DNA of 63,999 nt, filler included, from Candidatus Babelota bacterium (GTDB taxonomy: Bacteria; JAGOBX01): the NCBI GenBank assembly GCA_017999075.1. It is 13 parts of 13 records of this genome, joined end to end, with 100 filler letters (N's around TTAATTAATTAA, not from the genome) between each part and the next. Parts side by side here need not be neighbours in the genome. Positions count along the whole stretch, not along the records: positions 3,235 to 17,792 come from JAGOBX010000036.1; 12 more parts are not named here. The stretch is one strand, 5' to 3'. Of the stretch, positions 3,135-17,892 are shown piece after piece. A model generated the notes under the pieces. That model did not search any database. It saw nothing but the letters and a program-made list of their open reading frames with translations, and was not told where the DNA came from. The position numbers and the translations under genes were made by a program. Each line of letters opens with the position of its first letter. Position 1 is the first letter of the stretch.

Positions 3135-3234
3135 NNNNNNNNNNNNNNNNNNNNNNNNNNNNNNNNNNNNNNNNNNNNTTAATTAATTAANNNNNNNNNN
3201 NNNNNNNNNNNNNNNNNNNNNNNNNNNNNNNNNN
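3135..3234. other. Artificial contig linker (N run + TTAATTAATTAA + N run). It recurs at 17793-17892, 32399-32498, 35617-35716, 38833-38932, 42046-42145, 45257-45356, 48468-48567, 51678-51777, 54878-54977, 58072-58171 and 61264-61363.
   Basis: Identical 100-nt spacer with stops in all six frames; ORFs are cut at each one. Confidence 0.99.
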
Positions 3235-3390
3235 TACAATAATTTTTGAGTTCATTTGGTTAACCTCCTAAATATTTTGACTGGTTGTAACAGTCGCTAT
3301 ATATTTTGCGAGGTTAACCTTTTTTAGTCAACTTTTTTCATTTTCTATAATATAGCAAGCTCTGCGGTTAAAAAAATATTTAATTTATTT

Positions 3391-3417
3391 TGCAACCTTT
3401 CCATAAAAAAACTGTAT
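3391..3417 (+). promoter_or_regulatory. ECF-type promoter motif copy 1 (TGCAAC-N17-GTAT), upstream of clpP-like gene
   Basis: TGCAAC 3391-3396, GTAT 3414-3417; same motif and spacing at five other intergenic sites. Confidence 0.7.
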
Positions 3418-3451
3418 AACAATTACAAAGTCAATTTGAGGAGGTTTTATT

Positions 3452-4003
3452 ATGAGCGGTAAAAATAATGACGAGAACAAAAAAAAAGAACTTGACGGTC
3501 TGCTTTTTTTGAGCGGCGCAGTATCAGCGGAAGGTATTTGCAGAGATATTATTCGATTGAATGTCGAGAACGAAGCGCCTGTGATACAATTGATTATCAA
3601 TTCGCAGGGCGGTTATTGTTCGGAAGGTTTTGCAATTATCGATATTATGGAATGGTCGAAAATTCCTGTATATACTACTGGTATCGGTATGATTGCGTCA
3701 ATGGGTTTATTGATTTTTATGGCCGGCGAAAAAGGTCACAGGGTAATAACTCCGCGCACTTCTATTTTATCGCATAGATATTTTGGCGGCGCGATAGGTA
3801 ATCATTCAAGTTTGATAGCCGCGCGTAAAGAACAGGATTTAATGCATCAAAGGATAATCAATCATTATTTTCAGCATTCAAAAATAACATCTGAAGATGA
3901 ATTGAATAATACGCTGCTGCGCGATGTTGATACTTGGTTGACGCCCGACGAATGTCTTAAATACGGGATTGCTGATAAAATACAGCAGGATATGAAGCGT
4001 TAG
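3452..4003 (+). CDS. ClpP-like serine protease (peptidase S14), divergent accessory copy
   Basis: LIINSQGG, GMIASMG (catalytic Ser), ILSHR (His), RDVDTWLTPDECLKYGIADKI (Asp region); GGAGG RBS. Confidence 0.9.
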   Translation: MSGKNNDENKKKELDGLLFLSGAVSAEGICRDIIRLNVENEAPVIQLIINSQGGYCSEGFAIIDIMEWSKIPVYTTGIGMIASMGLLIFMAGEKGHRVITPRTSILSHRYFGGAIGNHSSLIAARKEQDLMHQRIINHYFQHSKITSEDELNNTLLRDVDTWLTPDECLKYGIADKIQQDMKR

Positions 4004-4012
4004 AAAATAATA

Positions 4013-4245
4013 GCCGATTGACGGATAGGCGGATAGGCGGATAAGCGGATAAGCGGATTGGCGGATAGGCCGATAAGCGGATTGACTAATTTTTAATTAT
4101 TAAAGTTTTGAATGTTTAGTTTTGAGTTTTGAGTGTTGGAAAATTAGTTTATAAAGTTTATAAGGTTCGTAAAGTTTGGAGTTAATAAAATTATTGATTG
4201 ACAACTGATGACTGGCAACTGATGACTGACAACTGATGACTGACT
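4013..4245 (+). repeat. Block of short tandem repeats (8-mer GCGGATA[G/A], 7-mer TTTTGAG, 9-mer AAAGTTTAT, 14-mer CAACTGATGACTG[A/G])
   Basis: Directly visible between the clpP-like stop and the ATPase RBS. Confidence 0.9.
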
Positions 4246-4295
4246 TCGTACTTCGCGCATCGCGCAATAAATTAAATTTTTGGAGGTTATACATT

Positions 4296-6386
4296 ATGGC
4301 AAACAACGATAAACAAAAAGAAAATAATAGCGGGATTATACCAGCCGCGCTGCTTGATTTAATGTCTGAACTTGTGAACAAATATATTGAACGGTGTGAG
4401 TTGTGGCAGGGTCAGCCGCAGAAAATCGAGCAGTTGACTAATTTAAACGAAAGTATAAAAAACATTGAATCGCAGATATTCGCGTTTGATTATCAACCGC
4501 TGAATTATACATTAAATCAGCTTAAATTTTCTGAGGTTGAAAGACGCCTGTTTATTCTGATATTTGTTTTAAAAACAGAAAATTCGCTGATGAAAAAAGC
4601 GAATGAAAAAGTTGAAAAAATCATTAAATCAAGCAGAAATAATTTGACGGCAAATACACTATTATCAATATTATTTGAATCTTATTCTGACAGGATAATC
4701 AACCGCAAACTTTTTTCAACTGAATCATCAATAATAAAAAATAATATTATTACTATGGAATCTAATGCTTATGAAAATATGCCGAACTGGGAAATTGAAA
4801 TGAATACGCGATTTATGAATTATATACTCGGCGATAATAATCTTTATGCGACAACTGATTTTTTGAGTATTGAAGAAAGCCGCGTTTCATTCGATTCCGT
4901 GATAATTGAAGACGCGATAAAAAAAGATATTATTGATGCGCTCGATAACTACGACGAATATCAAAAACGAATCAGCGTTTTGAAAGAAAACGGAGTTTTT
5001 GAATACGGGATCGGTTATACATTTATGTTTTACGGTCAATCAGGCGTAGGCAAGACAATGCTCGCGCACGCAATAGCAAAATATCTAAACAAAAAAATTA
5101 TTACTTACAAATCTAATAAAAATTCTGATAATGTTCCATTCAGAAGACACAGAAATATCGAAGAACAGTTGCCGCGTCTATTTCTTGAAGTTGCGTTGCA
5201 TAACGGTATATTGTTTTTTGACGAATGTTCAGAATTATTCAAGAAAGAAACGCAGGAAAGCAGAGAGCTGCTGATACAACTTGAAAAAAGTAATGTGATT
5301 GTTATTTTCGCGACTAACAATTTAGTTGATTTATCGCCGGCCCTTGAACGCCGGATACTTTTCAAATACAAAATCAAAGCGCCTGATTTGAATAACCGCA
5401 TTAAACTATGGAATCATTTCCTTACAAAAAGCGGGATTACCGGCGTTAAAAAAGAACTTATCGAAAAAATCAGCGCGCGCTATAATATGCCCGGCGGATT
5501 TATCAAGAATGCCGCGCTAAAATATATCAACTCAAAAATCAGCGGCGTCATTAATGGTGCTGAACTTGAAAAAATAACGGAAATATATTACAATCGTTAT
5601 ATTGAGAGTTCGTTTGTATTGAAGCAATCCGATCCCTCGGCATTTGATGAAAAACATTTTGAATCAATAAATGCTGAAATTAAAAACTCGCTTGATAAAA
5701 TTGTAGAAGCCGCGCGAATGCTTTATTCTATTGAAAACATAAATAACTGCAATATGCCGAGTATTAATGTAGTTATCGCAACAGCGGGCGAACATAGCGC
5801 GAATAGATTATCTGAATATATCATTAATAAATTGCAGCGGTCATTTATTAAATTCGGGTTAAACTATAAATCCGACGAAGAATTTGAATCTGATTATAAG
5901 AAAAAATTCATCATCAGTTATTTGCAGGCGGACGCGCTCGAAGATATCCGCGATACGCGGCCTGTTATAGTTTTTGATCAGCTCAAAAAAAATAATGATA
6001 AATATAATGTCCGCGAAGAATATGCGGAATGTCTTAAAAAAATGACGCAGAATGTCGGGATATTGCGGATAATGCTGATATCGCATAAAACAGATAAGGA
6101 TTTATTTGATGATTTTAATCCTGATTTTTTTGTCAGATTCCGCGATGATATTAAGCCCGCTGATACAATCGATAAACTGCTTAAACATAATAATATTCAG
6201 ATTGATTCAGCGCTTAAAACTCAGATTATCGATGATTGCAATAATCCGAAACAGATGCTTAAATTCAAAAAAATTGTTCAACTCTATAAACTGCAGAATC
6301 ATCAGAAAGAACCGCGTAAATTCAACGATTATATTGATATGATGTTTTTCAAAGAATTAGCTTTTGACGCGCCGCTGTTCGGCTGA
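4296..6386 (+). CDS. AAA+ ATPase (about 696 aa) with helical N-terminal region and a probable degenerate second AAA domain
   Basis: Walker A GQSGVGKT, Walker B LFFDE, sensor FATN, Arg finger ALERR, PGGFIKNA. Start moved to ATG 4296 because GGAGG lies at 4282; the track start lies inside the repeats. Confidence 0.88.
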   Translation: MANNDKQKENNSGIIPAALLDLMSELVNKYIERCELWQGQPQKIEQLTNLNESIKNIESQIFAFDYQPLNYTLNQLKFSEVERRLFILIFVLKTENSLMKKANEKVEKIIKSSRNNLTANTLLSILFESYSDRIINRKLFSTESSIIKNNIITMESNAYENMPNWEIEMNTRFMNYILGDNNLYATTDFLSIEESRVSFDSVIIEDAIKKDIIDALDNYDEYQKRISVLKENGVFEYGIGYTFMFYGQSGVGKTMLAHAIAKYLNKKIITYKSNKNSDNVPFRRHRNIEEQLPRLFLEVALHNGILFFDECSELFKKETQESRELLIQLEKSNVIVIFATNNLVDLSPALERRILFKYKIKAPDLNNRIKLWNHFLTKSGITGVKKELIEKISARYNMPGGFIKNAALKYINSKISGVINGAELEKITEIYYNRYIESSFVLKQSDPSAFDEKHFESINAEIKNSLDKIVEAARMLYSIENINNCNMPSINVVIATAGEHSANRLSEYIINKLQRSFIKFGLNYKSDEEFESDYKKKFIISYLQADALEDIRDTRPVIVFDQLKKNNDKYNVREEYAECLKKMTQNVGILRIMLISHKTDKDLFDDFNPDFFVRFRDDIKPADTIDKLLKHNNIQIDSALKTQIIDDCNNPKQMLKFKKIVQLYKLQNHQKEPRKFNDYIDMMFFKELAFDAPLFG

Positions 6387-6394
6387 TAATTTTC

Positions 6395-6443
6395 CGCCGG
6401 ACTACAATTTGATTTTGATTGTCGTCCGGCATTATTTATTTTT
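6395..6443 (+). terminator. Probable intrinsic terminator after the ATPase
   Basis: GCCGGAC-TACAAT...ATTGTC-GTCCGGC stem followed by a T-rich tract. Confidence 0.55.
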
Positions 6444-6713
6444 CGAATTAAATATAGGATTTGATAGAATTTCTTAACACGGATGTAAACAGATTAAACG
6501 GATTTAACGGGTTGTATATTGTAGTCGCGAATTTTAATTCGCATCTTATAACGCCGATATAAAATCGGCGATTACAAAAATACGCTTTATTATGAGAAGT
6601 GTCGATATTTTCAATTATAAGAATAATTTCTACTTTCCGTTTCTGCGTCAAATAACTGAAAATATATATTTTAAGGTAATGCTTAAGTGAACGCTGGCAC
6701 TTGCCATAATAAA

Positions 6714-6770
6714 TGTAGAAAACCCTTTAGGGTTGCTTTAAAAAATAGCAATGCTAAAGCATTTTTTACA
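6714..6770. repeat. Double-hairpin palindromic element, copy 1 (inverted copy at 12155-12210)
   Basis: TGTAGAAAACCCTTTAGGGTTGC...GCAATGCTAAAGCATTTTTTACA. Confidence 0.75.
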
Positions 6771-6795
6771 TTTTATTTACTTATTCGAAAGTCCC

Positions 6796-6883
6796 AATTT
6801 CAAATAACCGCAGGCGCGACCTGTGGCAAAAATAACTTAAGTGACAACCCTGAACAATGTTGAATTTTATATTAATTTGAAAT
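6796..6883 (+). repeat. Direct repeat A, copy 1 (REP-like hairpins)
   Basis: About 88 nt, near-identical to 9159-9246. Confidence 0.9.
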
Positions 6884-7002
6884 CCTATACTTATCAAAAT
6901 CGTTTTTTGAATTTATTTATTGACTGGTGATTTCATCAACGGCTATGTAAAATTTGACGATTTCAGCGTCGTAAATTTTTAAGAAAATCAATATTTCATT
7001 TA

Positions 7003-7057
7003 AAAAAACATCACATATTTTGCAACTGTTTTAGATAATTTGCGTATAATTATTAAA
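7003..7057 (+). promoter_or_regulatory. Direct repeat B, copy 1, containing ECF-type promoter copy 2
   Basis: TGCAAC 7021-7026, CGTAT 7043-7047; 50/55 identical to 9320-9374. Confidence 0.75.
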
Positions 7058-7075
7058 GATTGGAGGTGATAAAAG

Positions 7076-7384
7076 ATGTTTGAGATAGACGCTTATGATT
7101 TATTCGAAATTTTAAAAAAAACTGACAAACACAAGTTTTATCAATTTGAAGGAGATATTTATAAAATTATAAATGAAATCAAAAAAATTTCAATTGACAA
7201 ATATATTACATATAATTGCGTATTGAAAGTTTACATTTCCGAATCATTAAAATTGGCGGAGACTGAAAAAATCGCCGGAGAAATTAATCAATACATTTTA
7301 ATTAATGAATTAATATTTAACGCTGAACATACTAAAAATTTATCCGATAATAATATAAAATTGGAATTGTATTTATTTTACTGA
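7076..7384 (+). CDS. Small protein resembling a stand-alone FtsZ/tubulin C-terminal domain
   Basis: Strong GGAGGTG RBS. EIDAYDLFEILK resembles FtsZ NLDFADVRTVMK, and VLKVYISESLKLAETEKIAGEI...LIFNAEHTKNLSDNNIKLELY resembles GVLMNITGG.NLSL.EV..AA..V...MIFGSVINENL.DEI.VTVI. By-eye pattern match only. Confidence 0.5.
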   Translation: MFEIDAYDLFEILKKTDKHKFYQFEGDIYKIINEIKKISIDKYITYNCVLKVYISESLKLAETEKIAGEINQYILINELIFNAEHTKNLSDNNIKLELYLFY

Positions 7385-7451
7385 TTGATTTTTTTATTTG
7401 GTTAATTTGGTTAATCTATGTTGTAATAAAACAAGGATTGACCGTATTAAC
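7335..7451 (+). repeat. Direct repeat C, copy 1 (includes the last 15 or so codons of the 102-aa ORF)
   Basis: 117 nt, 2 mismatches to 10331-10447. Confidence 0.95.
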
Positions 7452-7580
7452 TATAAAAATATTTTTGACACTAATTGCGCTAATTTTCACAAATTTATAA
7501 TTTAAAATTATGTTTTTAGTTTGATTTATATTGAAGTTTAAAATATATTTTTAAACAAATAATTTTTATAGAGGAAAAAT

Positions 7581-8315
7581 ATGAAACAACAACATTGTCC
7601 GCACGATAGTTGGGCAAACTATTACGATTTTGTTTATGAAACAACATATGGAGTTTTTTACAAAAATATTACTGAGCAATCTTTGAATATTATTGAAAAT
7701 GTTCTGCCGACGGGCAAAATCCTTGATATGGGCGCCGGGACAGGGCGAATGTCAATACCATTATCCAAGAAAGGATACAATATTACAGCAATTGAACGCA
7801 GCGCCAATATGTATAAAATACTAAAACAAAAATCTAAACAAAATAATATTGATATCAATATATTAAATTTGCCTATTCTTGATTACAACGGTTCTGAAAA
7901 TAATATGGTGTTATGTCTTTTTACTGTATTAAATTATATTTTAGACGAAGATGAATTAGAAAAAACTATTTCTATAATAAAAAATTCATTAGTAAATAAT
8001 GGGTATATTTTTTTTGATATAGCAGAAAAAGTATTTTTTAATATACGACAATTAATAAATATTAATCGTGATTATTTACAAAGAAAGGTAATTGTAAACC
8101 CGACGGATGTTAAAGATATTTATTCTTATACAGAAGAATGCGGCGGTATTTTCAATGGTCAGTCATTTAAATATACTGATGAATTTAAAATCAGATATTG
8201 GGAACCTGTCACAGTAATAAACAAATTTATTGATGCGGGCTTTGAAATATTTAGCGATTATTCCGAGCAATTTAAAAATACTGGCTCCGCATATTTTGTA
8301 TTGAAGAAAAAATAA
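7581..8315 (+). CDS. Class I SAM-dependent methyltransferase
   Basis: ILDMGAGTGR motif I; WANYYD N-terminus; NNGYIFFD. Confidence 0.9.
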   Translation: MKQQHCPHDSWANYYDFVYETTYGVFYKNITEQSLNIIENVLPTGKILDMGAGTGRMSIPLSKKGYNITAIERSANMYKILKQKSKQNNIDINILNLPILDYNGSENNMVLCLFTVLNYILDEDELEKTISIIKNSLVNNGYIFFDIAEKVFFNIRQLININRDYLQRKVIVNPTDVKDIYSYTEECGGIFNGQSFKYTDEFKIRYWEPVTVINKFIDAGFEIFSDYSEQFKNTGSAYFVLKKK

Positions 8316-8343
8316 AAATTATTAAAATTATAGGAGTGTCAAA

Positions 8344-9081
8344 ATGCATGGAAAAATTCTTAATTTTTATGAAAGTGTAGTATCTTGTGACAGTAATAAC
8401 AATATTTGCCCAAGAACTGAAAAGAATGATTCGACACCGCCACGCGGTTTTTATAGTCGTGGAGTTCCGAGCAAAATAGATATTATGGTAATCGGTAAAA
8501 ATCCAGGGCATTTGCTTTGTGACGAAAATGGAAATGAGGCACAACTATATGAAAATCACACACCAAGAGAAAAAGCGGAAATTATATTTTATAGCAATAA
8601 TAATAATATTAATATTAATGTTGAATTTAACGACCCATTATCTCAAAAATTTCATATAAATTTATTTAGATATTTAGCTTATTTTTTAGATATTACAGAT
8701 AAATTAAAAACTTATTCTGATTTTAAAAATTCAGAAAATCGGCATCAAATTTCTGAAAACACATTAGAAAAATGTCTTATAACAAATTTAGTTAAATGTC
8801 AGACAATAACGGAAAAAGAAAAACTTAAAGCCCCTACAAAGCAAAATTGTTTAAATAAATTTTTATGTGATGAAATTAGATTTTGGCAACCAAAAGTAAT
8901 TCTTTGTTTAGGTTCTGAAACAGATCCATTTATCAAAAATAAAATCAAAAAAATTAATGATTTAGAAAAATATTCAAATAAATTTGTTCAAGTTAGACAT
9001 CCTTCATATTTTTATGCAAGAAATAAAGAACAACAAGAATTATGTAAAATTAAAAGTCAAATAACTGAAATTCTAAGTTAA
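8344..9081 (+). CDS. Uracil-DNA glycosylase superfamily protein
   Basis: IMVIGKNPG (motif A), ITNLVKC, QPKVILCLG, VRHPS (motif B). Confidence 0.8.
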   Translation: MHGKILNFYESVVSCDSNNNICPRTEKNDSTPPRGFYSRGVPSKIDIMVIGKNPGHLLCDENGNEAQLYENHTPREKAEIIFYSNNNNININVEFNDPLSQKFHINLFRYLAYFLDITDKLKTYSDFKNSENRHQISENTLEKCLITNLVKCQTITEKEKLKAPTKQNCLNKFLCDEIRFWQPKVILCLGSETDPFIKNKIKKINDLEKYSNKFVQVRHPSYFYARNKEQQELCKIKSQITEILS

Positions 9082-9138
9082 TAATTTTTTTATATTAATT
9101 TTTTTAAAGTAATTTATAAATGATATTTAAGAATAATC

Positions 9139-9246
9139 GACAACCGCGAATGCGGTTGAATTTCAAATAACCGCAGGCGCAACCTGTGGCAAAAATAACT
9201 TAATGTGACAACCCTGAACAGGGTTGAATTTATATTAATTTGAAAT
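9139..9246 (+). repeat. Direct repeat A, copy 2, with an extra 5' hairpin
   Basis: CAACCGCGAATGCGGTTG, CCGCAGGCGCAACCTGTGG and CAACCCTGAACAGGGTTG hairpins. Confidence 0.9.
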
Positions 9247-9319
9247 TCGACCCTTATAAATTTTCAAACGCCATAAATGTTTAATGTTTTATAAAATCCA
9301 CATTACTGCACAAAAAATT

Positions 9320-9374
9320 AAAAAACATCCGATATTTTGCAACTGTTTTAAAGAATTTGCGTATCATTATTAAA
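9320..9374 (+). promoter_or_regulatory. Direct repeat B, copy 2, containing ECF-type promoter copy 3
   Basis: TGCAAC 9338-9343, CGTAT 9360-9364. Confidence 0.75.
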
Positions 9375-9405
9375 CCAAGAAAATTATATTACGAGGTGCT
9401 TATAA

Positions 9406-10332
9406 ATGAACGAAAATGTTTCTGATAAAAATGAAGAACACGAGTATCTGCGCATCAATACATTATTACCGGATATAATCAAAAAAATTGAAAATAGGTA
9501 TGTCGAACAAAATCCTATTAATGGCGTGCCTACGGGATTTAGAGCATTAGATGATATGACATCGGGTTTTCAAAATTCCGATTTGATAATAATTGCCTCG
9601 CGTCCGTCTATGGGTAAAACAAGTTTAGCGCTCAATATTGCATATTATGCAGCGCGCGTAGAAAACATTCCGGTTATGATTTTTAGTTTAGAATTAAATT
9701 CTAAAAATCTTATTTTCCGGCTTATTTCAAATGCTGCAATAATTGAGCTTAAAAAAATTATGAACGGTTTATTAAACAATAGTCAATGGGAACGCTTGAT
9801 TGAGGCAAGCGAAATATTATATCAGTGTCCCGTCTATATTGATAACAGCGATAATATCGATATTATTTCAATTATTGATAAAATAAAAAAATTAAAACAG
9901 GAAAAGAATATAGGGTTAGTTATTATTGATTATTTGCAATTAATAAAAGTGGATAATATTGAAGCCGAAAATAATGACCAAGTATTAGCTAAAATTTGCC
10001 GCGCGTTGAAAAACACTGCTGAAATAACTGAAATACCGATTATTGTATTATCGCAGTTAAAAAGACCGCCGGAATCAAGAATTAAACAACCGCCGCTCAT
10101 TGTTGATTTAGATGAATCGGGTATTATCGAAGAAATAGCGGATGTGATATTGTTGATGTTCAATGATAAAAATTATCCGATTTCAAGAGTCAAAGGAATG
10201 ACCGAAATTAATATTGTCAAACACAAAAATGGACCGCGCGGAAAAATATATTTGCATTTTCTTGAAAAATTCTCGAGTTTTGAAAACTATGATAATACTG
10301 ATTATTTCGATGATTACTTGGTGAATCATTAA
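9406..10332 (+). CDS. DnaB-like helicase, C-terminal ATPase domain only
   Basis: GVPTGF..LD.MT.G, ASRPSMGKT, FSLE, IIDYLQL, LSQL.R, DL.ESG.IE..AD, K..NGP.G. It is 308 aa and has no N-terminal domain. Confidence 0.92.
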   Translation: MNENVSDKNEEHEYLRINTLLPDIIKKIENRYVEQNPINGVPTGFRALDDMTSGFQNSDLIIIASRPSMGKTSLALNIAYYAARVENIPVMIFSLELNSKNLIFRLISNAAIIELKKIMNGLLNNSQWERLIEASEILYQCPVYIDNSDNIDIISIIDKIKKLKQEKNIGLVIIDYLQLIKVDNIEAENNDQVLAKICRALKNTAEITEIPIIVLSQLKRPPESRIKQPPLIVDLDESGIIEEIADVILLMFNDKNYPISRVKGMTEINIVKHKNGPRGKIYLHFLEKFSSFENYDNTDYFDDYLVNH

Positions 10333-10447
10333 AATTTATCGGATAATAATATAAAATTGGAATTGTATTTATTTTACTGATTGATTTTTTTATTTGGTTA
10401 ATTTGGTTAATCTGTGTTGTAATAAAACAAGGATTGACCGTATTAAC
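10331..10447 (+). repeat. Direct repeat C, copy 2
   Basis: Begins at the dnaB-like stop codon; 115/117 identical to 7335-7451. Confidence 0.95.
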
Positions 10448-10463
10448 CAAATTATTTGGATAC

Positions 10464-11027
10464 TTAAAAAAACCGAGTAAATATACCCGCCAAAAATCTT
10501 AATGTAAAATTACATTTCTCGAATTGTTTTTCCATTGAATATTCCATCTCGCGCAATCTTTTATTTACGGACGAATAAAAATTAATTTTAAAACTATTGT
10601 CAACAGTAACCGGAAATATAAACAACCGCAATATTTCACGCGCATCAATTTTCTGCTCCAAATATTCGGCAGCGGAATAACCGGACGGCACGCCGTTTTT
10701 ATTATAACCTGCAAATATCAGCGGAATAAAAGCTTCGTTGATATTTTTGTTTTCAATCAATTCATTCCAGTGTTGACCGGGCAAAGCGAACGGAATACCT
10801 AACGCTGGTTTAACCGGATTATAAAACGAATATTCCATCGGCATCAGTTTTTCTTCGTCCTGCATTCTTTTAATAGCAGCATCAACTGATTTTAATAAAT
10901 TGAAAGAAACAAGCGTTTCAGCTATTTCTTTAAAAACGCCGGCTTTATCAGTTGCTTTTAATTCATTAGTATAAAAAACATTAATCTTTTTATGTGCACA
11001 TTTTATTATTGAATATTTTTTTGTCAT
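10464..11027 (-). CDS. Degenerate PTS EIIA (Fru/Ntr-type)-like protein
   Basis: ELKATDKAGVFKEIAETLV...EEKL...GIPFA...AGYNKNGV...RLFIF follows the EIIA pattern (L.A..K..V..ELA.LL...RE.L...AIPHA...GRS.EGI...HLIF). Start moved to ATG 11027 (GAGGA RBS). Confidence 0.5.
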   Translation of the reverse strand: MTKKYSIIKCAHKKINVFYTNELKATDKAGVFKEIAETLVSFNLLKSVDAAIKRMQDEEKLMPMEYSFYNPVKPALGIPFALPGQHWNELIENKNINEAFIPLIFAGYNKNGVPSGYSAAEYLEQKIDAREILRLFIFPVTVDNSFKINFYSSVNKRLREMEYSMEKQFEKCNFTLRFLAGIFTRFF

Positions 11028-11040
11028 TTGAATATTCCTC

Positions 11041-11092
11041 ATAATTCGGAGTATTCGGTGGTTTATTTTTACCACCGAATGTTCCGAATTAT
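11041..11092. repeat. 22-bp inverted repeat between two co-oriented genes
   Basis: ATAATTCGGAGTATTCGGTGGT / ACCACCGAATGTTCCGAATTAT, 20/22 Watson-Crick pairs. Confidence 0.85.
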
Positions 11093-11098
11093 ACCGAT

Positions 11099-11698
11099 TT
11101 ATTGTTTCCGCGTATTTTCTTCGATTGCAATAAACACAGGCACGCAAAGAAAAATTATAAAAAACAAAAGTCCTAAAACAGCCGCTGCCGCAGTATATAA
11201 TTTCTGATCGCCGGCTTCAGCTTTATTTGTCTTTTTTTCTTCAAGCATCTCAAAAAACAGGTTTCTATGAGCATTAAACATATCAGCGGCAGTAATACCT
11301 TTTTTATGCGTTTTTTCATATTCAAGCGCCTGATTAATGAATTTTACTGTTGAACTCAGAAAATCGTTTCTGTGTTCTTCAGGCACGCTTATTAAAATAT
11401 CAAGAACAATATTGTAATTTTCAACGCCAATATTATAATTTTTTATTATCTCTTTTAATCTGTCTGAATATAATTTCTCGACTGATTGGCGTTCGTCAAT
11501 CTGTTTGAAATCAGTTGCATTCTGTTTTTCTTCTTCAAAATAACCTTTGATAGAATCAAATGACGGCATCTGTGTTTTTTTCTCTGCTGTGAAATAACCG
11601 ATTGCTGAAATAAGGATTATCACTAAACTCACAACAATAAAAAAAAGCGATACCATTTTCCCGAAAACAAACAACTTACCATAGATAAACTTAAACAT
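11099..11698 (-). CDS. Hypothetical membrane protein (N- and C-terminal TM helices)
   Basis: Two hydrophobic segments flank a helical loop; AAGGAG RBS before ATG 11698. Confidence 0.75.
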   Translation of the reverse strand: MFKFIYGKLFVFGKMVSLFFIVVSLVIILISAIGYFTAEKKTQMPSFDSIKGYFEEEKQNATDFKQIDERQSVEKLYSDRLKEIIKNYNIGVENYNIVLDILISVPEEHRNDFLSSTVKFINQALEYEKTHKKGITAADMFNAHRNLFFEMLEEKKTNKAEAGDQKLYTAAAAVLGLLFFIIFLCVPVFIAIEENTRKQ

Positions 11699-11742
11699 AA
11701 ATAGACACACTCCTTAAAAAAATTTAATTTACATATCTATAT

Positions 11743-11769
11743 ATACGCGCTTTTCAAAATTTGGTTGCA
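11743..11769 (-). promoter_or_regulatory. ECF-type promoter motif copy 4
   Basis: Minus strand TGCAAC(11769-11764)-N16-CGTAT. Confidence 0.7.
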
Positions 11770-11863
11770 AAAAAAATTTAATTTACAATAATATAGTGCA
11801 GAGTGCAGAGAAAGATTTAAGGATTAGTGATATATAACAAAATCAAATTGACAAAATAATTTT

Positions 11864-12082
11864 AAACCGCATTAGCGGTTTTATGTATATAGCCGCAGGT
11901 TTTTCAAAAACCTGCGGTATAAAAACAAAAAATCAAATCAACCCCAGCGGGGTTGTATGTAAAAAACAACAACGAGTATTTTTTTTACATACCGCTACGC
12001 TGTAGCGGAAATTTAGTTGTTAGTTATTTCCAGCGGTTTTTTCAAACCGCTGGTTACAAACATTAAACACCTCCGGCGTTTG
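11864..12082. repeat. Cluster of REP-like hairpins
   Basis: AAACCGCATTAGCGGTTT, CCGCAGGTTTTTCAAAAACCTGCGG, CAACCCCAGCGGGGTTG, CCGCTACGCTGTAGCGG, CCAGCGGTTTTTTCAAACCGCTGG. Confidence 0.8.
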
Positions 12083-12114
12083 AGAGATTTTGTCAATTTA
12101 TTTTCGTTACATAA

Positions 12115-12244
12115 AACTATTCAGCAGTATAAACGCAGAAACATTGAATTTTATTGTAAAAAACGCTTTAGCGTTGCTATAATAAAAGCAATCCTAAAGG
12201 ATTTTCTACAGTTTTTGCGCTAAAAATTATACTGTTGAACAGTT
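12115..12244. mobile_element. MITE-like element with 18-bp terminal inverted repeats enclosing palindromic element copy 2
   Basis: AACTATTCAGCAGTATAA ... TTATACTGTTGAACAGTT (16/18); internal double hairpin at 12155-12210. Confidence 0.5.
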
Positions 12245-12484
12245 ACATTTTTTTAAAATTAAAATATCTTAATCTTATCCTGTATAATCCTGTTATCCTA
12301 TTAAAATATGATTTTATACTTATTTAAAAAGAATATTCAGTTCAAGAAAAATTTCAACATTGTGTTGTAAAGTTTTAGATGTATAATCGCGAACAATCTG
12401 TCAAAGTAAAATTTGCTTAAATTTATTGGAACAATTTCTGACTGCACTCCCGAGCGCAGAGCGCAGATAATAATATTTATTTTT

Positions 12485-12511
12485 TGCAACCGTTAATTAA
12501 ATTTAGAGTAT
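12485..12511 (+). promoter_or_regulatory. ECF-type promoter motif copy 5
   Basis: TGCAAC 12485-12490, GTAT 12508-12511. Confidence 0.7.
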
Positions 12512-12560
12512 AAATAAGTATATAAGTTAAAAATTTTATTAAGGAAAAGGAAATAGCAAT

Positions 12561-12878
12561 ATGAAAAACATTTCAAATTCTAATAACTTTGATATTGAAA
12601 ATGCAAACGAAATAAACGACTATAAGGTAACAGTAAGAAAATTTACAATCATAAGCGGTGAATCTTTAAATGTCTTTCTCTGTTATGCGAAATGTGAAGA
12701 CAATATTATTGAAAATATAAAAATTATTGAAGATTTATTTGCCGCAAAGAAAAGTTTATATTTCGAAGGACAGATTATATGTCCGGTGTGTAACGAGATA
12801 CTTGATTATAAATATTATGATAGTGGTTATCTTGATGGTTGCTGCAGAACAGAAAACTGTTTAAATTGGAAGGAATAA
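12561..12878 (+). CDS. Small hypothetical protein with C-terminal Cys cluster (probable Zn finger)
   Basis: GQIICPVC...GCCRTENCLNWKE. Confidence 0.65.
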   Translation: MKNISNSNNFDIENANEINDYKVTVRKFTIISGESLNVFLCYAKCEDNIIENIKIIEDLFAAKKSLYFEGQIICPVCNEILDYKYYDSGYLDGCCRTENCLNWKE

Positions 12879-12960
12879 TATGAGTAATGTTTTAATTTTT
12901 TGAAGTTAAACTAAAAGGTATCTCGTATGATATTATTTAGTGTCAGCGCCACTACAAATA

Positions 12961-14127
12961 TCAAATCATTTCTTCTACCAAACTTAAAAATCCTATTGAA
13001 TCATCGCTTAGTTTCATTAATTTTGATTTGTAATCATTTTTTGGAGTTGGCGGTAAGGCATCTAATTTATCTTTTAAAAAAAACATCTCCACTGAATATA
13101 AATAATCAAGAACCCGCGCGTCAATCACGCCGCATTTTTTTAACAAATAATAGCATCTCACACGAATATCAGTGTCTGGATTCAATACCAAATATGAAAT
13201 TTTTTCTATAAGTATTTCTTTTTCATCTCTATCGCCCAATATCAAATTTTTATTTACGCGATCGATTTTTAATATGTTCTCGATAAGTTTTACTTTGTCA
13301 TCTCTTGTGTCTAATACATCAGTTTTATTTACTTTATCGATTGTTAAAATATATTTGTAATAAGTGAACAATAGTTGCGAATGTATCCACATACACAGAT
13401 GATTACCCAAATCAATTTCCGGTTTGCTGTTTAAAAAATTTAAGAGCAGCAATGCATTTTCAAAATCATCATTATTCAGAGATTTTTTTTCAGCGATATC
13501 TGTTGATAGCAGATAATTAAATATTATTGATGTGTAAAACAGTAATTTTGAATACTCTATGCAGCCGTCCCTAAACCCGAAATATATTTTATCATATTCT
13601 TCGGATTTTTCAGAATTATTGTCTTTTACTATCAAATTTAATTTAGGATGTTTAGTTAAATAATCCTCTTTTAATTGCGCGTGATTAAAAAAAATTGATT
13701 TATGACAAAGCATCATTTTCATAAATAACTCGACAAACATTTGCGGGTTCGCGCATACTTCTTTTTTGGAAATATTATGAATATTGTTTATGATATTTTC
13801 ATATTTATTTATATTATGATTATCAAATATTTTCGGAAAACATTTATAAATAAAAGCATAGTTGATACGTGGCGGCAAATATTCCTCGGGAACAGTGAAC
13901 TCTTTTTCTTCTGAAAATGAATATTCGAAAAGTTTTATATGGATGAGATTTTGACAATCAGGTTTACTTAATATTTTTCTATCTGTTTTTTGTAAGAATT
14001 CGAGGAATTCAGCGCAGTTAAGTTCTTTTACATAGTGTGACGCAAATCCGGAATTTATATACGCATCAACCATTTCTTTTTCAATTAACGAAAAATAGGC
14101 AATTTTTGTTGCACAGTAATCACACAT
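12961..14127 (-). CDS. Hypothetical protein (helical, N-terminal CxxC)
   Basis: 388-aa ORF with AAGGA RBS; no family recognised. Confidence 0.7.
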   Translation of the reverse strand: MCDYCATKIAYFSLIEKEMVDAYINSGFASHYVKELNCAEFLEFLQKTDRKILSKPDCQNLIHIKLFEYSFSEEKEFTVPEEYLPPRINYAFIYKCFPKIFDNHNINKYENIINNIHNISKKEVCANPQMFVELFMKMMLCHKSIFFNHAQLKEDYLTKHPKLNLIVKDNNSEKSEEYDKIYFGFRDGCIEYSKLLFYTSIIFNYLLSTDIAEKKSLNNDDFENALLLLNFLNSKPEIDLGNHLCMWIHSQLLFTYYKYILTIDKVNKTDVLDTRDDKVKLIENILKIDRVNKNLILGDRDEKEILIEKISYLVLNPDTDIRVRCYYLLKKCGVIDARVLDYLYSVEMFFLKDKLDALPPTPKNDYKSKLMKLSDDSIGFLSLVEEMI

Positions 14128-14151
14128 TGTTTGTTCCTTTAAATTTTTTTT

Positions 14152-14841
14152 TTAATTTTTTTTATATAATGCGCGCGGTATATCGTGCATACCTTCTTTT
14201 CGATTAAAATCAGAAATTTGGTTGTATCCTTTCCAGCAATCAGTACCTTCAGATACATATAAATAATTCGGTAAATTATTTTTTGCAATTTTATATAATT
14301 CTGAGATGATTTCAGGATTAGGACCTACCAAGCCGTGTTTCTGTAAAACTGTTATTTCAGGTTTTGCGTTGTTTTGCGACCATATAATATTATAGGCGTT
14401 TCTGCCGTCAAAAAATAAATACAACAGACAAATATCTTTTCCGAATATTCTTAAAAAAGATATAAAACCAAGTATATCTGCGTTTTCAATAGATTCCGAA
14501 TATTTGAATTTTATATTTTTGCTTATATTAAAAATATCGGATTTATAAATAGGTTTAGTATCAAGCAATCTGCAACCGGAATATTTTTTGTTAATATGAT
14601 TTATAATTTCGTTGCAGTCAATAGTTTCAAGTGCGCAGTATATATATAGCGGAATATCCGTATTTTCAGCAAACAGCAAAAGCGGATCAATATCGCGGCC
14701 TGCGCCCAAATAAAACAACGAAGGCAATTTTATAAGTTCCTCAATCTTCAATCTTTCTAATCTTTCTTCAGATTTAAAGTCCGGCATTGTTTTTAAACAT
14801 TCTTCAATCTGTAATAAATTTTTTTTCTGTTTTTCTGACAT
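14152..14841 (-). CDS. Hypothetical protein, possible Rossmann/methyltransferase-like fold
   Basis: LFYLGAGRDIDP glycine-rich loop; GAGGA RBS. Confidence 0.6.
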   Translation of the reverse strand: MSEKQKKNLLQIEECLKTMPDFKSEERLERLKIEELIKLPSLFYLGAGRDIDPLLLFAENTDIPLYIYCALETIDCNEIINHINKKYSGCRLLDTKPIYKSDIFNISKNIKFKYSESIENADILGFISFLRIFGKDICLLYLFFDGRNAYNIIWSQNNAKPEITVLQKHGLVGPNPEIISELYKIAKNNLPNYLYVSEGTDCWKGYNQISDFNRKEGMHDIPRALYKKN

Positions 14842-14916
14842 AAAAATGTCCTCCTATTTATTTTTACTATTATATCATATTTTAGTTAAAAAACCAAATC
14901 TATAATTAATTGATAA

Positions 14917-15135
14917 CTAATTACATATATTTTTAGTATTTATGCAAATTGATAAATAACCATTGCTTATCAAATTTTTATTTTTTTTTAACAGCGGATA
15001 ATCCGGTATATTTAATTTCAAATCATTAGCGTAAATCAACTCTTTAATACGCGCTTTAATGTCCTGGATATTTATATAAACAATTTTTTCAGTTATGCGT
15101 TCAATACCGCCGAAATCATCATTTGATATTTTCAA
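14917..15135 (-). CDS. Small hypothetical ORF or gene remnant
   Basis: 72 aa, TTG start with no RBS, directly behind promoter motif copy 6. Confidence 0.3.
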   Translation of the reverse strand: MKISNDDFGGIERITEKIVYINIQDIKARIKELIYANDLKLNIPDYPLLKKNKNLISNGYLSICINTKNICN

Positions 15136-15149
15136 TTTTATATTTGATT

Positions 15150-15176
15150 ATACTATGAAATCAAGGAATGGTTGCA
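15150..15176 (-). promoter_or_regulatory. ECF-type promoter motif copy 6
   Basis: Minus strand TGCAAC(15176-15171)-N17-GTAT(15153-15150). Confidence 0.65.
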
Positions 15177-15225
15177 AAAAATTGATTATTATGAGAGATA
15201 AATTTCAGATAAGTTGGAAGTATTA

Positions 15226-15486
15226 TTATTCGTAATGAGTCCACATACGAATTATTTTAATGGTTTTAATATCTGGCAAAATTTCATAAACCAATCTGTG
15301 TTGAATATTTATTCGCCGCGAATAAGCGCCTGATAAATCACCCATTAATTTTTCAGAATAAGGCGGCTGTTGATAGGGATTGCTTTTAAGTATATCAAGT
15401 AAATATTGCGTTTTATTTTTTAATCCCGCTGATGATATTTTTAGCGCATCTTTTTGAGCTTGTTTGGTATAAACAATATTCCACAT
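15226..15486 (-). CDS. yoeB: Txe/YoeB-family toxin
   Basis: NPYQQPP..EKL.GDLSGAYSRRINIQHRLVY...IIRMWTHYE. Confidence 0.95.
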   Translation of the reverse strand: MWNIVYTKQAQKDALKISSAGLKNKTQYLLDILKSNPYQQPPYSEKLMGDLSGAYSRRINIQHRLVYEILPDIKTIKIIRMWTHYE

Positions 15487-15492
15487 CTCATC

Positions 15493-15732
15493 TTACCATT
15501 TTAATGATTCGGAACATTCGTTAATCGGAGTTTTAAGCCCTTTCTTGATACTTTCGGTCATTCCTGTTATTGATTGCAAATATAAAGTTTCGGATATAGC
15601 CCGCCAGTCCTGCTCTGATAGTAAAACGGCATTTTGTCGGCCTGACAAAAATACGGGTTCATTTATTGTAGATACTTTTTTGATTAATCTGTTAATACTT
15701 GTTTTTGGTTTATTAACATCAACTACTATCAT
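15493..15732 (-). CDS. yefM: Phd/YefM-family antitoxin
   Basis: EPV.L.G..NAVLLSE.DW.AI.ETLYL.SI.GM.ESI..GL.TP; directly upstream of the toxin. Confidence 0.92.
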   Translation of the reverse strand: MIVVDVNKPKTSINRLIKKVSTINEPVFLSGRQNAVLLSEQDWRAISETLYLQSITGMTESIKKGLKTPINECSESLKW

Positions 15733-15787
15733 AATACCCCCCCTTTAATTTGTTATTTAATATACTAATATTTAATAAAAAAACAAG

Positions 15788-17269
15788 TTAAGTTATAGTT
15801 AATGTTTCCAATTCACGCAAAATATGAATAAGCCCTTCAGTATCGAGTTTGCAGTATTCAAGCAGATTTCGGCGTGTTTTATTTTTATCAGCTTCAGCTA
15901 CTTCAGTAAAAGCAATGCGCATATATTCATTTGACGCAAACAGACCATTGGATATTTCCAAACCGGAATATGATTTGCCTGTAAGCGCCGGCAACACTGC
16001 TTTGACAGACGCGCTGCCCTTCTGCGCCGGATGATAATAATGAAAGGAATTGAACGGCGCGAACAAATCAACAAAACGCGGTAAAATACTATTAACCCAA
16101 TTTTTAAATTTAGGATATGCGTGCGCATTTTCTTTTAGCCGCAACTTTTCAAAACTCATATTATACGCCATTATAGATCCTTTATTGCCGATTAATTTAT
16201 ATAATGATTCCATTATTTCAATGCGCGGATCGCCATCGCCAGACGCAAGATATTCAAAATGCTGCGGCGCGCTATTCAACTCATTCACAATATGCAATGA
16301 ATACTGGAATGTAACCTGCACATACGGTTTGATTTTATCAAATAGCGGCACCGCAGTGCTGAATGTCTCGAAATCAAGTATATACAATGGAAATTCTAAT
16401 TTATTCAGAAATTTTTTTAGGGCGGGTTTATCAATATGCGGCTGACAGGTTTGCGCTGTCTGCACTTGTATTTTATGAGTTTTATTCAATTCAACGCTGG
16501 CAGGTATATTAGCAAGTTCAAAAATGCCGTCTCTGATAAATTCATACGCTTTTTTCTTAGCGCGGCGCAACTGAAAAATACTGTAATTCTTGCCTGCATA
16601 TTCATCGCACAATTTAGAATACAGCGGACAATGATATGGGAAAAAACAATGGTCGCCGCATTCGATACGCGGTGTTTTTTTCTGATTCATAATCGTGCTG
16701 AAATCCATTATCATTTTTTCAATTTCAGCCATTATTTCCGCGACTTTTTTTGTAATATCAATTTTTACGAACAGATTATTAATATCAAGTTCGCCGCAGC
16801 GTTCGTAATTTTTATTTATGTGCATTATAAAACATTTGTTGATTTTTATGCCCGCGCCTTCGCAGCAATATCTTTGGAAAGCAACATCAAAAATATGAAT
16901 ATCTTTTACAGCATTAGCGCTTTTGACTTCAATAATATCAAACTTACCTGATTTGACAGGCGCGAGAATATCGTTTCTGGCAAAACCATTTCCAAAGACA
17001 AATCCGGGTTCAAATAATGCTTTACACGAATTCGAAAATTTTTGTGTTTCAGCAATTCCGTTATCAAAACCGTTTTCCCAATTGATTTCTATTCCGTCAG
17101 GAAACATTTGTTTAGCATATTGTCCAACCATCAACCCTTGGTCAAATGCTGATTGTTCGTTTGAATTTTCAGCTAACTGCGCTTTGTCATTGCAGAAATA
17201 CCATAATAATTTCGCGCATTGCGCGCCTTTCAAAAATGTAGTTTTTGTTAGATATTTTTTTGTTATCAT
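15788..17269 (-). CDS. DUF2779-domain protein (PD-(D/E)xK nuclease-like N-terminus, RNase H-like C-terminus)
   Basis: G.QC.K.LW, ARNDIL...IIEVKS, D.AFQ.Y, Cys cluster, LDFET...PY.Q..FQYSLH, LLEYCKLDT. Confidence 0.85.
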   Translation of the reverse strand: MITKKYLTKTTFLKGAQCAKLLWYFCNDKAQLAENSNEQSAFDQGLMVGQYAKQMFPDGIEINWENGFDNGIAETQKFSNSCKALFEPGFVFGNGFARNDILAPVKSGKFDIIEVKSANAVKDIHIFDVAFQRYCCEGAGIKINKCFIMHINKNYERCGELDINNLFVKIDITKKVAEIMAEIEKMIMDFSTIMNQKKTPRIECGDHCFFPYHCPLYSKLCDEYAGKNYSIFQLRRAKKKAYEFIRDGIFELANIPASVELNKTHKIQVQTAQTCQPHIDKPALKKFLNKLEFPLYILDFETFSTAVPLFDKIKPYVQVTFQYSLHIVNELNSAPQHFEYLASGDGDPRIEIMESLYKLIGNKGSIMAYNMSFEKLRLKENAHAYPKFKNWVNSILPRFVDLFAPFNSFHYYHPAQKGSASVKAVLPALTGKSYSGLEISNGLFASNEYMRIAFTEVAEADKNKTRRNLLEYCKLDTEGLIHILRELETLTIT

Positions 17270-17593
17270 AAATCAAAGCATAATACTGTTATACTGCAAT
17301 TACAGATTAAAGTTTGCAGATTATCAGAAAAAATTAATTTTTTCAATTTAATATTATAATTCATTTTTGTTAAATATAATTTCATTTCAGGAAAAATGCG
17401 ATATATTTTTATATTATGATTTCAGTTCCCTCTCTCAACCCTTAAACTTCCTATCCAAGCACCGTGGCATGATTTCTTTTTTGTAACCTGTATTTTAAAA
17501 TCATTGCTCAAAATGCTTTTGACAGCCGCACTTTATATTCACTTTATGACTATATTTTAATATTATTCCACCACCCATTTGATTGATTTAAAT

Positions 17594-17792
17594 TTAAAAA
17601 TAAATACTGTCTGCTATCGAGCTTTTATCTAAATCATCATCTATTAATCTCTGCATATATCGCCGGCTTGAAATAACGCCTGTTTCTAATATCTCAATTA
17701 TCACATACGCCAAATGTCTGTCATAACTGCCAGGCTGAATAATATGCGCTCTGCCTAATGTATTTTCCCATATTCCTGTAACAGTCGGCGAT
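17594..17792 (-). CDS. 3' fragment of a gene, possibly a metallophosphoesterase/5'-nucleotidase-like domain
   Basis: Hand translation ...RAHIIQPGSYDRHLAYVIIEI...SIYF*; cut by linker. Confidence 0.4.
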
Positions 17793-17892
17793 NNNNNNNN
17801 NNNNNNNNNNNNNNNNNNNNNNNNNNNNNNNNNNNNTTAATTAATTAANNNNNNNNNNNNNNNNNNNNNNNNNNNNNNNNNNNNNNNNNNNN

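Follow-up and report, generated by a model that had tools for sequence, protein, structure and literature searches.

The described systems closest to the locus considered here are of several kinds. Mosaic palindromic repeats of the REP/BIME type (repetitive extragenic palindromes and bacterial interspersed mosaic elements) are familiar from bacterial genomes, as are miniature inverted-repeat transposable elements (MITEs) bearing promoters or terminators, such as the Correia elements. Some insertions, exemplified by e14 and phage 21 at icd, duplicate the 3' end of their target gene, and in integrons unrelated cassette genes are each trailed by an imperfect hairpin. Finally, in type III-E CRISPR loci a gene for a sigma factor of the extracytoplasmic function (ECF) type, CASP-sigma, adjoins that for a TPR-CHAT protease, and the sigma motif occurs in promoters of the locus (PMC10028731); that source gives only three strong motif matches in the locus and calls the full biological consequence unknown. 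We analysed two gene units that resemble each of these in part, at positions 6796-10447 of a 63,999-nt stretch of DNA (hereafter the window) from a metagenome-assembled genome (MAG) of a Candidatus Babelota bacterium (GCA_017999075.1). In both, a repeat A, a promoter-like repeat B, an open reading frame (ORF) and a repeat C follow each other, which the original prediction had taken for a promoter/3' frame into which a gene was captured or replaced. On our best reading the two frames are instead a mosaic of three kinds of repeat with separate histories, not a dedicated gene-swapping cassette.

Repeats A, B and C and the origin of the two units

The window sets contigs of the MAG (G000; 3.83 Mb, 594 contigs, 87% complete) in a row, with N spacers with ttaattaattaa between them, and its neighbours are not one molecule; both units lie wholly on one contig, C70 (window positions 3235-17792, 14.6 kb). 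Coordinates below are those of the window and its plus strand unless stated otherwise. Re-alignment placed the repeats where they had been predicted, in the collinear order A-B-ORF-C in both units. The first copy of A (6796-6883) differs from the second (9159-9246) at 5 of 89 aligned columns, and at 10 of 103 when the match is extended (6796-6897 against 9159-9260); the copies of B (B1, 7003-7057; B2, 9320-9374) are identical at 50 of 55 positions, and those of C (C1, 7335-7451; C2, 10331-10447) at 115 of 117. The two ORFs are indeed unrelated, one of 102 aa (orf102, 7076-7384) and one of 308 aa (dnaB-C, 9406-10332), and the labels given to them, FtsZ-C-like and DnaB-C, hold up (an FtsZ fold match by Foldseek and VIA, and a Pfam DnaB_C match, respectively). 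C1 starts within orf102 and takes in the final 16 codons and the stop of this gene as well as a long imperfect hairpin (7396-7455). C2 has its first base within the dnaB-C stop codon, TAA; past this stop it continues the relic orf102 3' end in the same frame and ends in the complete hairpin (10392-10452).

Repeat A is an intergenic repeat of about 250-350 nt, made of GC-rich palindromic units and dispersed in the genus. A DNA search of 41 genomes found at least seven matches in the same-genus genome G001 (about 125-140 nt, 77-83% identity), all on the A region and located between unrelated genes, and aligning the family reveals six or more GC-rich hairpins, the loop of the second being a site of nested hairpin insertions. 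A thus has the many intergenic copies and the palindromic units of a dispersed repeat. Among themselves, five of the seven copies in G001 are 86-95% alike, with lower scores for the two that have loop insertions, so the 90-94% identity between A1 and A2 is nothing special. With an nhmmer model built solely from G001 copies, A1 covers 6796-6978 (C70:3562-3744) and comprises palindromic units 2-6, without unit 1 and with units 3-4 degraded, while A2 covers 9131-9256 (C70:5897-6022; fold z-score -7.2) and comprises units 1-3 and half of unit 4, without units 5-6. These are the only two copies that profile searches recovered from G000; they miss opposite ends of the family consensus and would be two differently truncated copies of the dispersed repeat, of which B is not a part. 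Loose metagenome-contig ends at 6959 and 9177 continue in the style of the G001 copies, and other A copies therefore exist in the community. Nested-loop insertions of GC-rich hairpins were seen in the G001 copies L020 and L022, with a like continuation at the 9177 loose ends in X1, X2 and X4. In its multiple intergenic copies, GC-rich palindromic units and nested loop insertions A resembles REP/BIME repeats and MITEs, and in the C70 units it stands directly upstream of promoters; it differs from them in having two copies in G000 against at least seven in the sister genome, in leaving B outside the element, and in that neither terminal inverted repeats nor target duplications came to light (the element ends are not defined). 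Y1_Tnp genes, counted by presence, number one in G000, seven in G001 and three in G002. Rfam on the repeats and the G001 copies of A gave sub-threshold chance matches only.

The history of B points elsewhere. A third copy, B3, lies on another contig, C277, upstream of a 357-aa protein matching the candidate defence family PDC-S11 (2e-26), and over 63 nt B2 shares 56 positions with B3, whereas B1 and B2 share 52, and B1 and B3 51. C occurs twice only in the assembly, and its copies have diverged less than the other repeats (2 of 117 positions, against 15 of 158 for A and B together; Fisher p 0.0096), so that C is the younger. The reusable promoter/3' frame of the original prediction is not supported by these comparisons, A being a genus-wide dispersed repeat, B one of 11 sites of an island-wide promoter class with B2 nearer to B3, and C younger and without a further copy. 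The search for other B...C frames with other cargo that the prediction had proposed found none in the assembly; the B pattern had no match in the metagenome contig and genome contig collections, nor the C hairpin pattern in the metagenome contig collection, in exact-pattern scans that diverged copies would escape.

The flanks of C suggest how its two copies arose. The left flank of C1 is native, being the body of orf102, and the tail encoded by C is native to the orf102 family because the sole homologue of this protein (see below) aligns through it. The right flank of C2 is native too, since it supplies the bases that complete the hairpin, which is complete at C2 only (fold z-score -5.6) and has lost its outermost pairs at the repeat boundary of C1. 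The novel junctions are thus 7451|7452 and 10330|10331, the block between them holds a methyltransferase gene, a UDG-like gene, A2, B2 and dnaB-C, and with native flanks on both sides removal of 7452-10447 would restore a single unit of orf102, hairpin and downstream sequence. C1 and C2 would then be the direct repeats produced as a 2.9-kb block, comprising the methyltransferase and UDG-like genes, A2, B2 and the truncated dnaB, became attached to orf102 at its 3' end, through a single crossover in 117 nt of homology or a replication-based rearrangement, with C alone representing a local, recent duplication. We give this block insertion about an even chance. We favour it over duplication of a whole cassette with replacement of its cargo, because C is younger, B2 has its closer affinity to B3, A1 and A2 have lost opposite ends, and the flanks of C follow the logic set out above. 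We infer the direction and mechanism of the event, as we would any function of C. One part of the capture or replacement originally proposed is retained in this account, namely that recombination put 50 nt of the orf102 coding 3' end and the hairpin behind the dnaB-like gene; the pre-existing frame is not.

Insertion at a gene's 3' end has its parallel in e14 and phage 21. Here, as there, a foreign-looking block lies between direct repeats (C1 and C2, 115/117) that include the target gene's 3' end, the gene being intact at one side and a pseudo-3' end lying at the far side. The likeness stops at the block itself, which codes for the methyltransferase, the UDG-like protein and dnaB-C only and has no integrase; no att core is defined and no empty site was observed. 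The orf102-dnaB-C locus is absent from the related genomes G001-G003.

Several observations count against the block insertion. The block (7452-10330) encodes no recombinase, and the metagenome contigs contain no empty site or circle junction, although contigs built from 31-mers cannot phase the 117-nt repeat; an alternative connection, of orf102 through C to the downstream sequence plus a 2,996-bp circle or tandem, is possible. Both A copies of G000 lie 161-207 nt upstream of B1 and B2, which is a coincidence if A is purely a family member and favours a common A-B-...-C ancestor. In addition, the 14-mer GAATCATTAAAATT, confirmed at both 7241-7254 and 10323-10336, suggests by its place at the junction that unit 2 may once have held more of orf102 than C. 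DnaB homology ends at 10317, 13 nt before C2 and at the last residue of the host DnaB; the 14-mer starts 5 nt past this end and runs into C2, and it is noteworthy that it sits precisely on the C2 junction. As a match in itself it is not significant (BLAST E 0.083 between the units, which have another exact 14-mer in common), and it occurs five times in the 3.8-Mb assembly, both strands counted.

These last points speak for the duplication of a cassette, which we regard as a possible but distinctly less probable history. It holds that an ancestral A-B-orf102-C unit was duplicated locally and that, in the downstream copy, a dnaB fragment lacking its 5' part took the place of the orf102 body between the transcription start and codon 86, the 14-mer and the 16 codons remaining as relics. 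The collinear order of the units speaks for it, as does the finding of the only two A and only two C copies of the assembly in this one place; the in-frame relic and the 14-mer 5 nt past the DnaB homology would fit a copy of orf102 from whose interior 86 nt had been deleted between two AAAATT sites. Contigs of X3, from a different study, carry both C2-type letters in C1 (7345 C>G, 7418 A>G) and one B2-type letter in B1 (7013 A>C), which is compatible with common descent or gene conversion. However, the divergence of A and B together is about five times that of C, B2 resembles B3, on another contig, more than it does B1, and the opposite truncations of A1 and A2 would demand extra deletions. 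The complete hairpin at C2 and the coding part native to unit 1 also fit badly with such a duplication, and dnaB-C is 49% diverged from its nearest relative and so no fresh capture from this host.

We consider a false join of strain variants or repeats in the MAG very improbable. Its source in 594 contigs invites the suspicion, and C is not phased by short k-mers because its 117 nt contain only two differences, 73 nt apart. Nevertheless, the repeat copies are not identical, and a mis-join would at most swap the right flanks of C, not create the repeats. Contigs of X1, probably the source sample, and of X2 match every flank-to-repeat junction piecewise with no other letters, including that from dnaB-C into C2, and both C-to-right-flank junctions are present in X3. 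The X3 contigs also show five changes inside orf102, three of which read as synonymous; they leave most of the dnaB-C body uncovered (9361-9783 and 9925-10347) with its flanks covered, a hole that is not evidence of absence. As to the excision or amplification of the methyltransferase-UDG unit that the original prediction thought possible, no repeat-to-repeat joint was found in the contigs, but 31-mer contigs break inside repeats; a single joint in X1, from 7398 to 8595, has one side of only 25 letters and does not run from one repeat copy to another.

Least likely of all is a dedicated gene-exchange system in which B and C would bound integron-like mobile cassettes that shuffle cargo: a long imperfect hairpin does close each unit where its gene ends, the two genes being unrelated, and B also stands with a third, different gene on C277, but the hairpin has only two copies in the genome, the B and C patterns found no match in the exact-pattern scans of the collections, C70 has no integrase or recombinase, both genes have promoters of their own, as integron cassettes do not, and by eye the hairpin lacks the RYYYAAC/GTTRRRY boxes of attC sites.

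The promoter class and its candidate sigma factor

The cores of B1 (7019-7050, TTTGCAAC-N17-GTATAAT) and B2 (9336-9367, TTTGCAAC-N17-GTATCAT) generalise to TTTGCAAC-N17-GTATAAT, that is, a -35 element TGCAAC and a -10 element CGTATA separated by N16. With at most one mismatch this pattern occurs ten times in 3.8 Mb, five times on C70, three on C277 and two on C434, against none for the reversed control, and these sites are confined to about 28 kb of defence-island DNA. Alternative spacings of 14-16 and 18-20 gave 0-2 sites. Allowing two mismatches swamped the signal (47 sites against 26 in the control), except for one further site on C70. A second tool counted, for sites against control, 10 and 0 in G000, 1 and 1 in G001, 0 and 1 in G002, and 0 and 0 in G003. 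All 11 sites face an ORF, nine of them within 85 nt. Besides the cores of B, those on C70 lie at 3389-3420 (31 nt upstream of the gene for a ClpP-like protein, which is followed by that for an AAA ATPase), at 12483-12514 (upstream of a 105-aa ORF), at 11740-11771 on the minus strand (the site with two mismatches, upstream of a minus-strand pair of 203 and 227 aa) and at 15147-15178, also on the minus strand (an exact match).

The similarity of B1, B2 and B3 stops 7 nt past the -10 element, at about the expected transcription start, and the conserved unit is therefore the promoter itself. In PMC8103513 the hallmarks given for ECF (group IV) promoters are an AAC within the -35 element and a CGT within the -10 element, and the class sites agree with this: the -35 element has GCAAC at 11/11 sites, the -10 element has GT at 11/11 and CGT at 7/11, and the N17 spacing is fixed. 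Ordinary promoters of G000 peak at TTGACA with a spacer of 16-17 nt. Judged from sequence, the class reads as a set of predicted promoters heading essentially every transcription unit of the island on C70, C277 and C434, B1 and B2 among them.

A candidate for the factor that reads these promoters is encoded in the island. C434 and C277 form one stretch of 13.4 kb, since they overlap by 160 nt; its genes code for an IS110 transposase, a DUF7663 protein, an S-adenosylmethionine (SAM) lyase-like protein, Fic/Doc, the PDC-S11-like protein, an ECF-type sigma factor and a TPR-CHAT protein. The sigma factor (C277:3922-5259) has Sigma70_r2 and r4_2 domains; it is 445 aa long, with a C-terminal extension of about 250 aa containing extra stretches like helix-turn-helix motifs, and the gene for the 900-aa TPR-CHAT protein lies directly 3' of it (C277:3922-7954 for both, L031). 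One class site is found 57 nt upstream of the sigma gene, as would be expected for an autoregulated ECF sigma factor, and divergent class promoters stand back to back at C277:3771-3864. Class promoters, including B1 and B2, would thus be read by the island's own ECF-type sigma factor. Among the four genomes of the phylum examined, this factor was found in G000 only; a word-based search for relatives returned the query itself only, which says little. A paralogue at C50:12502-13692 (L045) is 31% identical to it over residues 24-404, and C50 is without a class promoter at one mismatch or fewer.

Some facts weigh against this assignment. The CGT of the -10 element is missing at 4/11 class sites, what ties the sigma factor to the promoters is its position and the type of motif, and C70 has no physical link to C277/C434 in the assembly and no terminal overlap with other contigs.

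Compared with the CASP-sigma, Csx29 and Csx30 components of type III-E loci (PMC10028731), the island shares the placing of an ECF-type sigma gene beside a TPR-CHAT gene in a defence context, and motif sites in the promoters of neighbouring defence genes, with one before the sigma gene itself. It differs in that no Cas7-11, Csx30 or Csx31 turned up on C70, C277 or C434, no search aimed at them having been made, that the sigma factor of 445 aa bears the long extension, and that the predicted regulon appears larger (11 sites) and confined to the island.

The two cargo genes

orf102 (7076-7384) is preceded by a ribosome-binding site, GGAGGTG, 8 nt upstream. It has no Pfam (E <= 0.01), PHROG or PADLOC match, a word-based search returned the query itself only, its profile found no relatives in viral contigs, and a sequence search against solved structures gave nothing relevant. 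PADLOC, run on both cargo genes, gave a weak mad8 match only. An exhaustive HMMER scan of 1.84 billion representatives recovered a single homologue, P0122, of 106 aa and encoded on a 4,677-nt contig, which is 35% identical to orf102 without gaps over residues 2-101; because this protein aligns over the full length, the gene and its C-encoded tail are real. A match in G003 (E 3.3e-4; the sole non-self match among the four phylum genomes) falls in a 419-aa ORF read as EPSP synthase and was discarded as spurious.

A single-sequence AlphaFold2 model of orf102 (pLDDT 76.7) had 64 Foldseek matches at E <= 1e-3, the top ones all FtsZ/TubZ, with E from 3e-5 and TMq 0.55-0.74. VIA over 48,161 chains likewise placed FtsZ first (Z 9.2 and 8.9), ahead of Rid-family folds at Z 7.3; the match at Z 8.9 lays model residues 5-102 on FtsZ 207-312. 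The model has the order of elements of the FtsZ C-terminal fold, H8-S7-H9-S8-H10-S9-S10. At the level of sequence, orf102 does not match Pfam FtsZ_C, and hhalign against the two FtsZs of G000 gave E 0.092 in the expected register, which is weak support. The leads from the protein atlas are small hypothetical proteins, with one cluster (score 0.89) having FtsZ_C in 22% of its members. The model thus presents orf102 as a predicted stand-alone protein like the FtsZ C-terminal domain. FtsZ has, before H8, the functionally important T7-loop acidic pair D-x-x-D. D5 and D8 are invariant in the two members of the orf102 family, and MAFFT aligns them, without statistical support, to VDxxD of both FtsZs of G000. 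The second of these FtsZs (C545:15207-15494, L028) is a paralogue of 322 aa that is 52% identical to the 393-aa FtsZ on C90.

dnaB-C (9406-10332) encodes a DnaB paralogue without the N-terminal domain (Pfam DnaB_C 8.5e-79). The best-matching relative, the 451-aa DnaB that the host encodes on C460 (P0004), is 51% identical to it over host residues 151-451, through the last residue, after which four codons (LVNH) and TAA follow in dnaB-C. There is no PF00772 match for the DnaB N-terminal domain, the protein starting at the equivalent of host residue 151, and a search of the genome contig collection returned no related loci. The RecA-like domain is recognisable, with Walker A and B kept and G70, K71 and D175 in invariant columns. 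When dnaB-C was aligned with 29 relatives taken from the 120 listed, it departed from them at 23 of the 95 columns that are at least 93% conserved in these relatives, where leave-one-out controls deviate at 0-9, so many near-invariant residues of the DnaB core are lost. The deviations include R236D in DLRESG, Q243E and D244I; the arginine of DLRESG acts as an arginine finger in DnaB. As many conserved columns are lost while the Walker motifs are kept, dnaB-C is an old, remodelled half-helicase and not a fresh pseudogene. Both cargo genes resemble cellular proteins, FtsZ and DnaB, in truncated and diverged form, and what they may do in the cell we infer.

The island and its possible role

C70 reads as a defence or conflict island. 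Its genes code for a ClpP-like protease, an IetA-like AAA ATPase, orf102 and a SAM-dependent methyltransferase; for a protein of the uracil-DNA glycosylase (UDG) superfamily, dnaB-C and several orphan ORFs; and for a RelE/YoeB-like toxin and a DUF2779/Cas4-like nuclease. The methyltransferase (7581-8315; Pfam Methyltransf_25, 3.3e-11) and the UDG-superfamily protein (8344-9081; Pfam UDG, 4.1e-8) are those of the block between C1 and C2; phages and plasmids searched with the latter gave no match. The ClpP-like gene and the following gene for a 716-aa AAA ATPase, which resembles IetA of the IetAS defence system (4e-14), occupy 3452-6386. The usual partner of IetA is a subtilase, and on C70 the IetA-like ATPase is partnered with a ClpP-like protein instead.

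Between its genes, the island is pieced together from hairpin modules, some of which also match G002. A two-hairpin module at 6714-6770, for example, is repeated inverted at 12155-12210 on the opposite strand (57 nt, 86% identity). A hairpin at 6519-6575 is the place of fold-back joints, with a few extra letters, in contigs of X1 and X4; these joints suggest that the sequence varies there or that the stretch is invertible or palindromic. On other contigs of the window, tandem repeats at 43279-44384 and 52806-53903 have periods of 165 and 399 nt and are probably coding repeats. Rfam at gathering score recognised tRNA only in the whole window. The '35-copy 134-nt repeat' that a repeat search reported (3136-3234, 17793-17892, then about every 3.2 kb from 32380) consists of the N spacers and is not biology.

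What the island might do as a whole can be put forward as a speculative and rather improbable scenario. A switch made of the sigma factor and the TPR-CHAT protein, with no CRISPR part seen on the contigs, would drive an island-wide, infection-induced regulon, legible directly in the 11 near-identical promoters, whose FtsZ- and DnaB-half-protein outputs would impose growth arrest as abortive infection. If so, orf102, which would keep the T7-loop acidic pair, could cap FtsZ filaments, and dnaB-C, with its ATP-binding motifs kept and the DLRESG arginine and the primase-binding N-domain lost, could poison the replicative hexamer; the two unrelated genes would then seem to share a frame because of their shared promoter.

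Seen as a scaffold for gene swapping, the locus is for the most part nothing unusual, with a family of repeats, a family of promoters and the scar of one rearrangement. The promoter class is its most noteworthy part, a sharply defined ECF-type motif beside a pair of genes for a sigma factor and a TPR-CHAT protein, and it would provide a directly testable predicted regulon of a sigma factor that is linked to a protease and belongs to a defence island.

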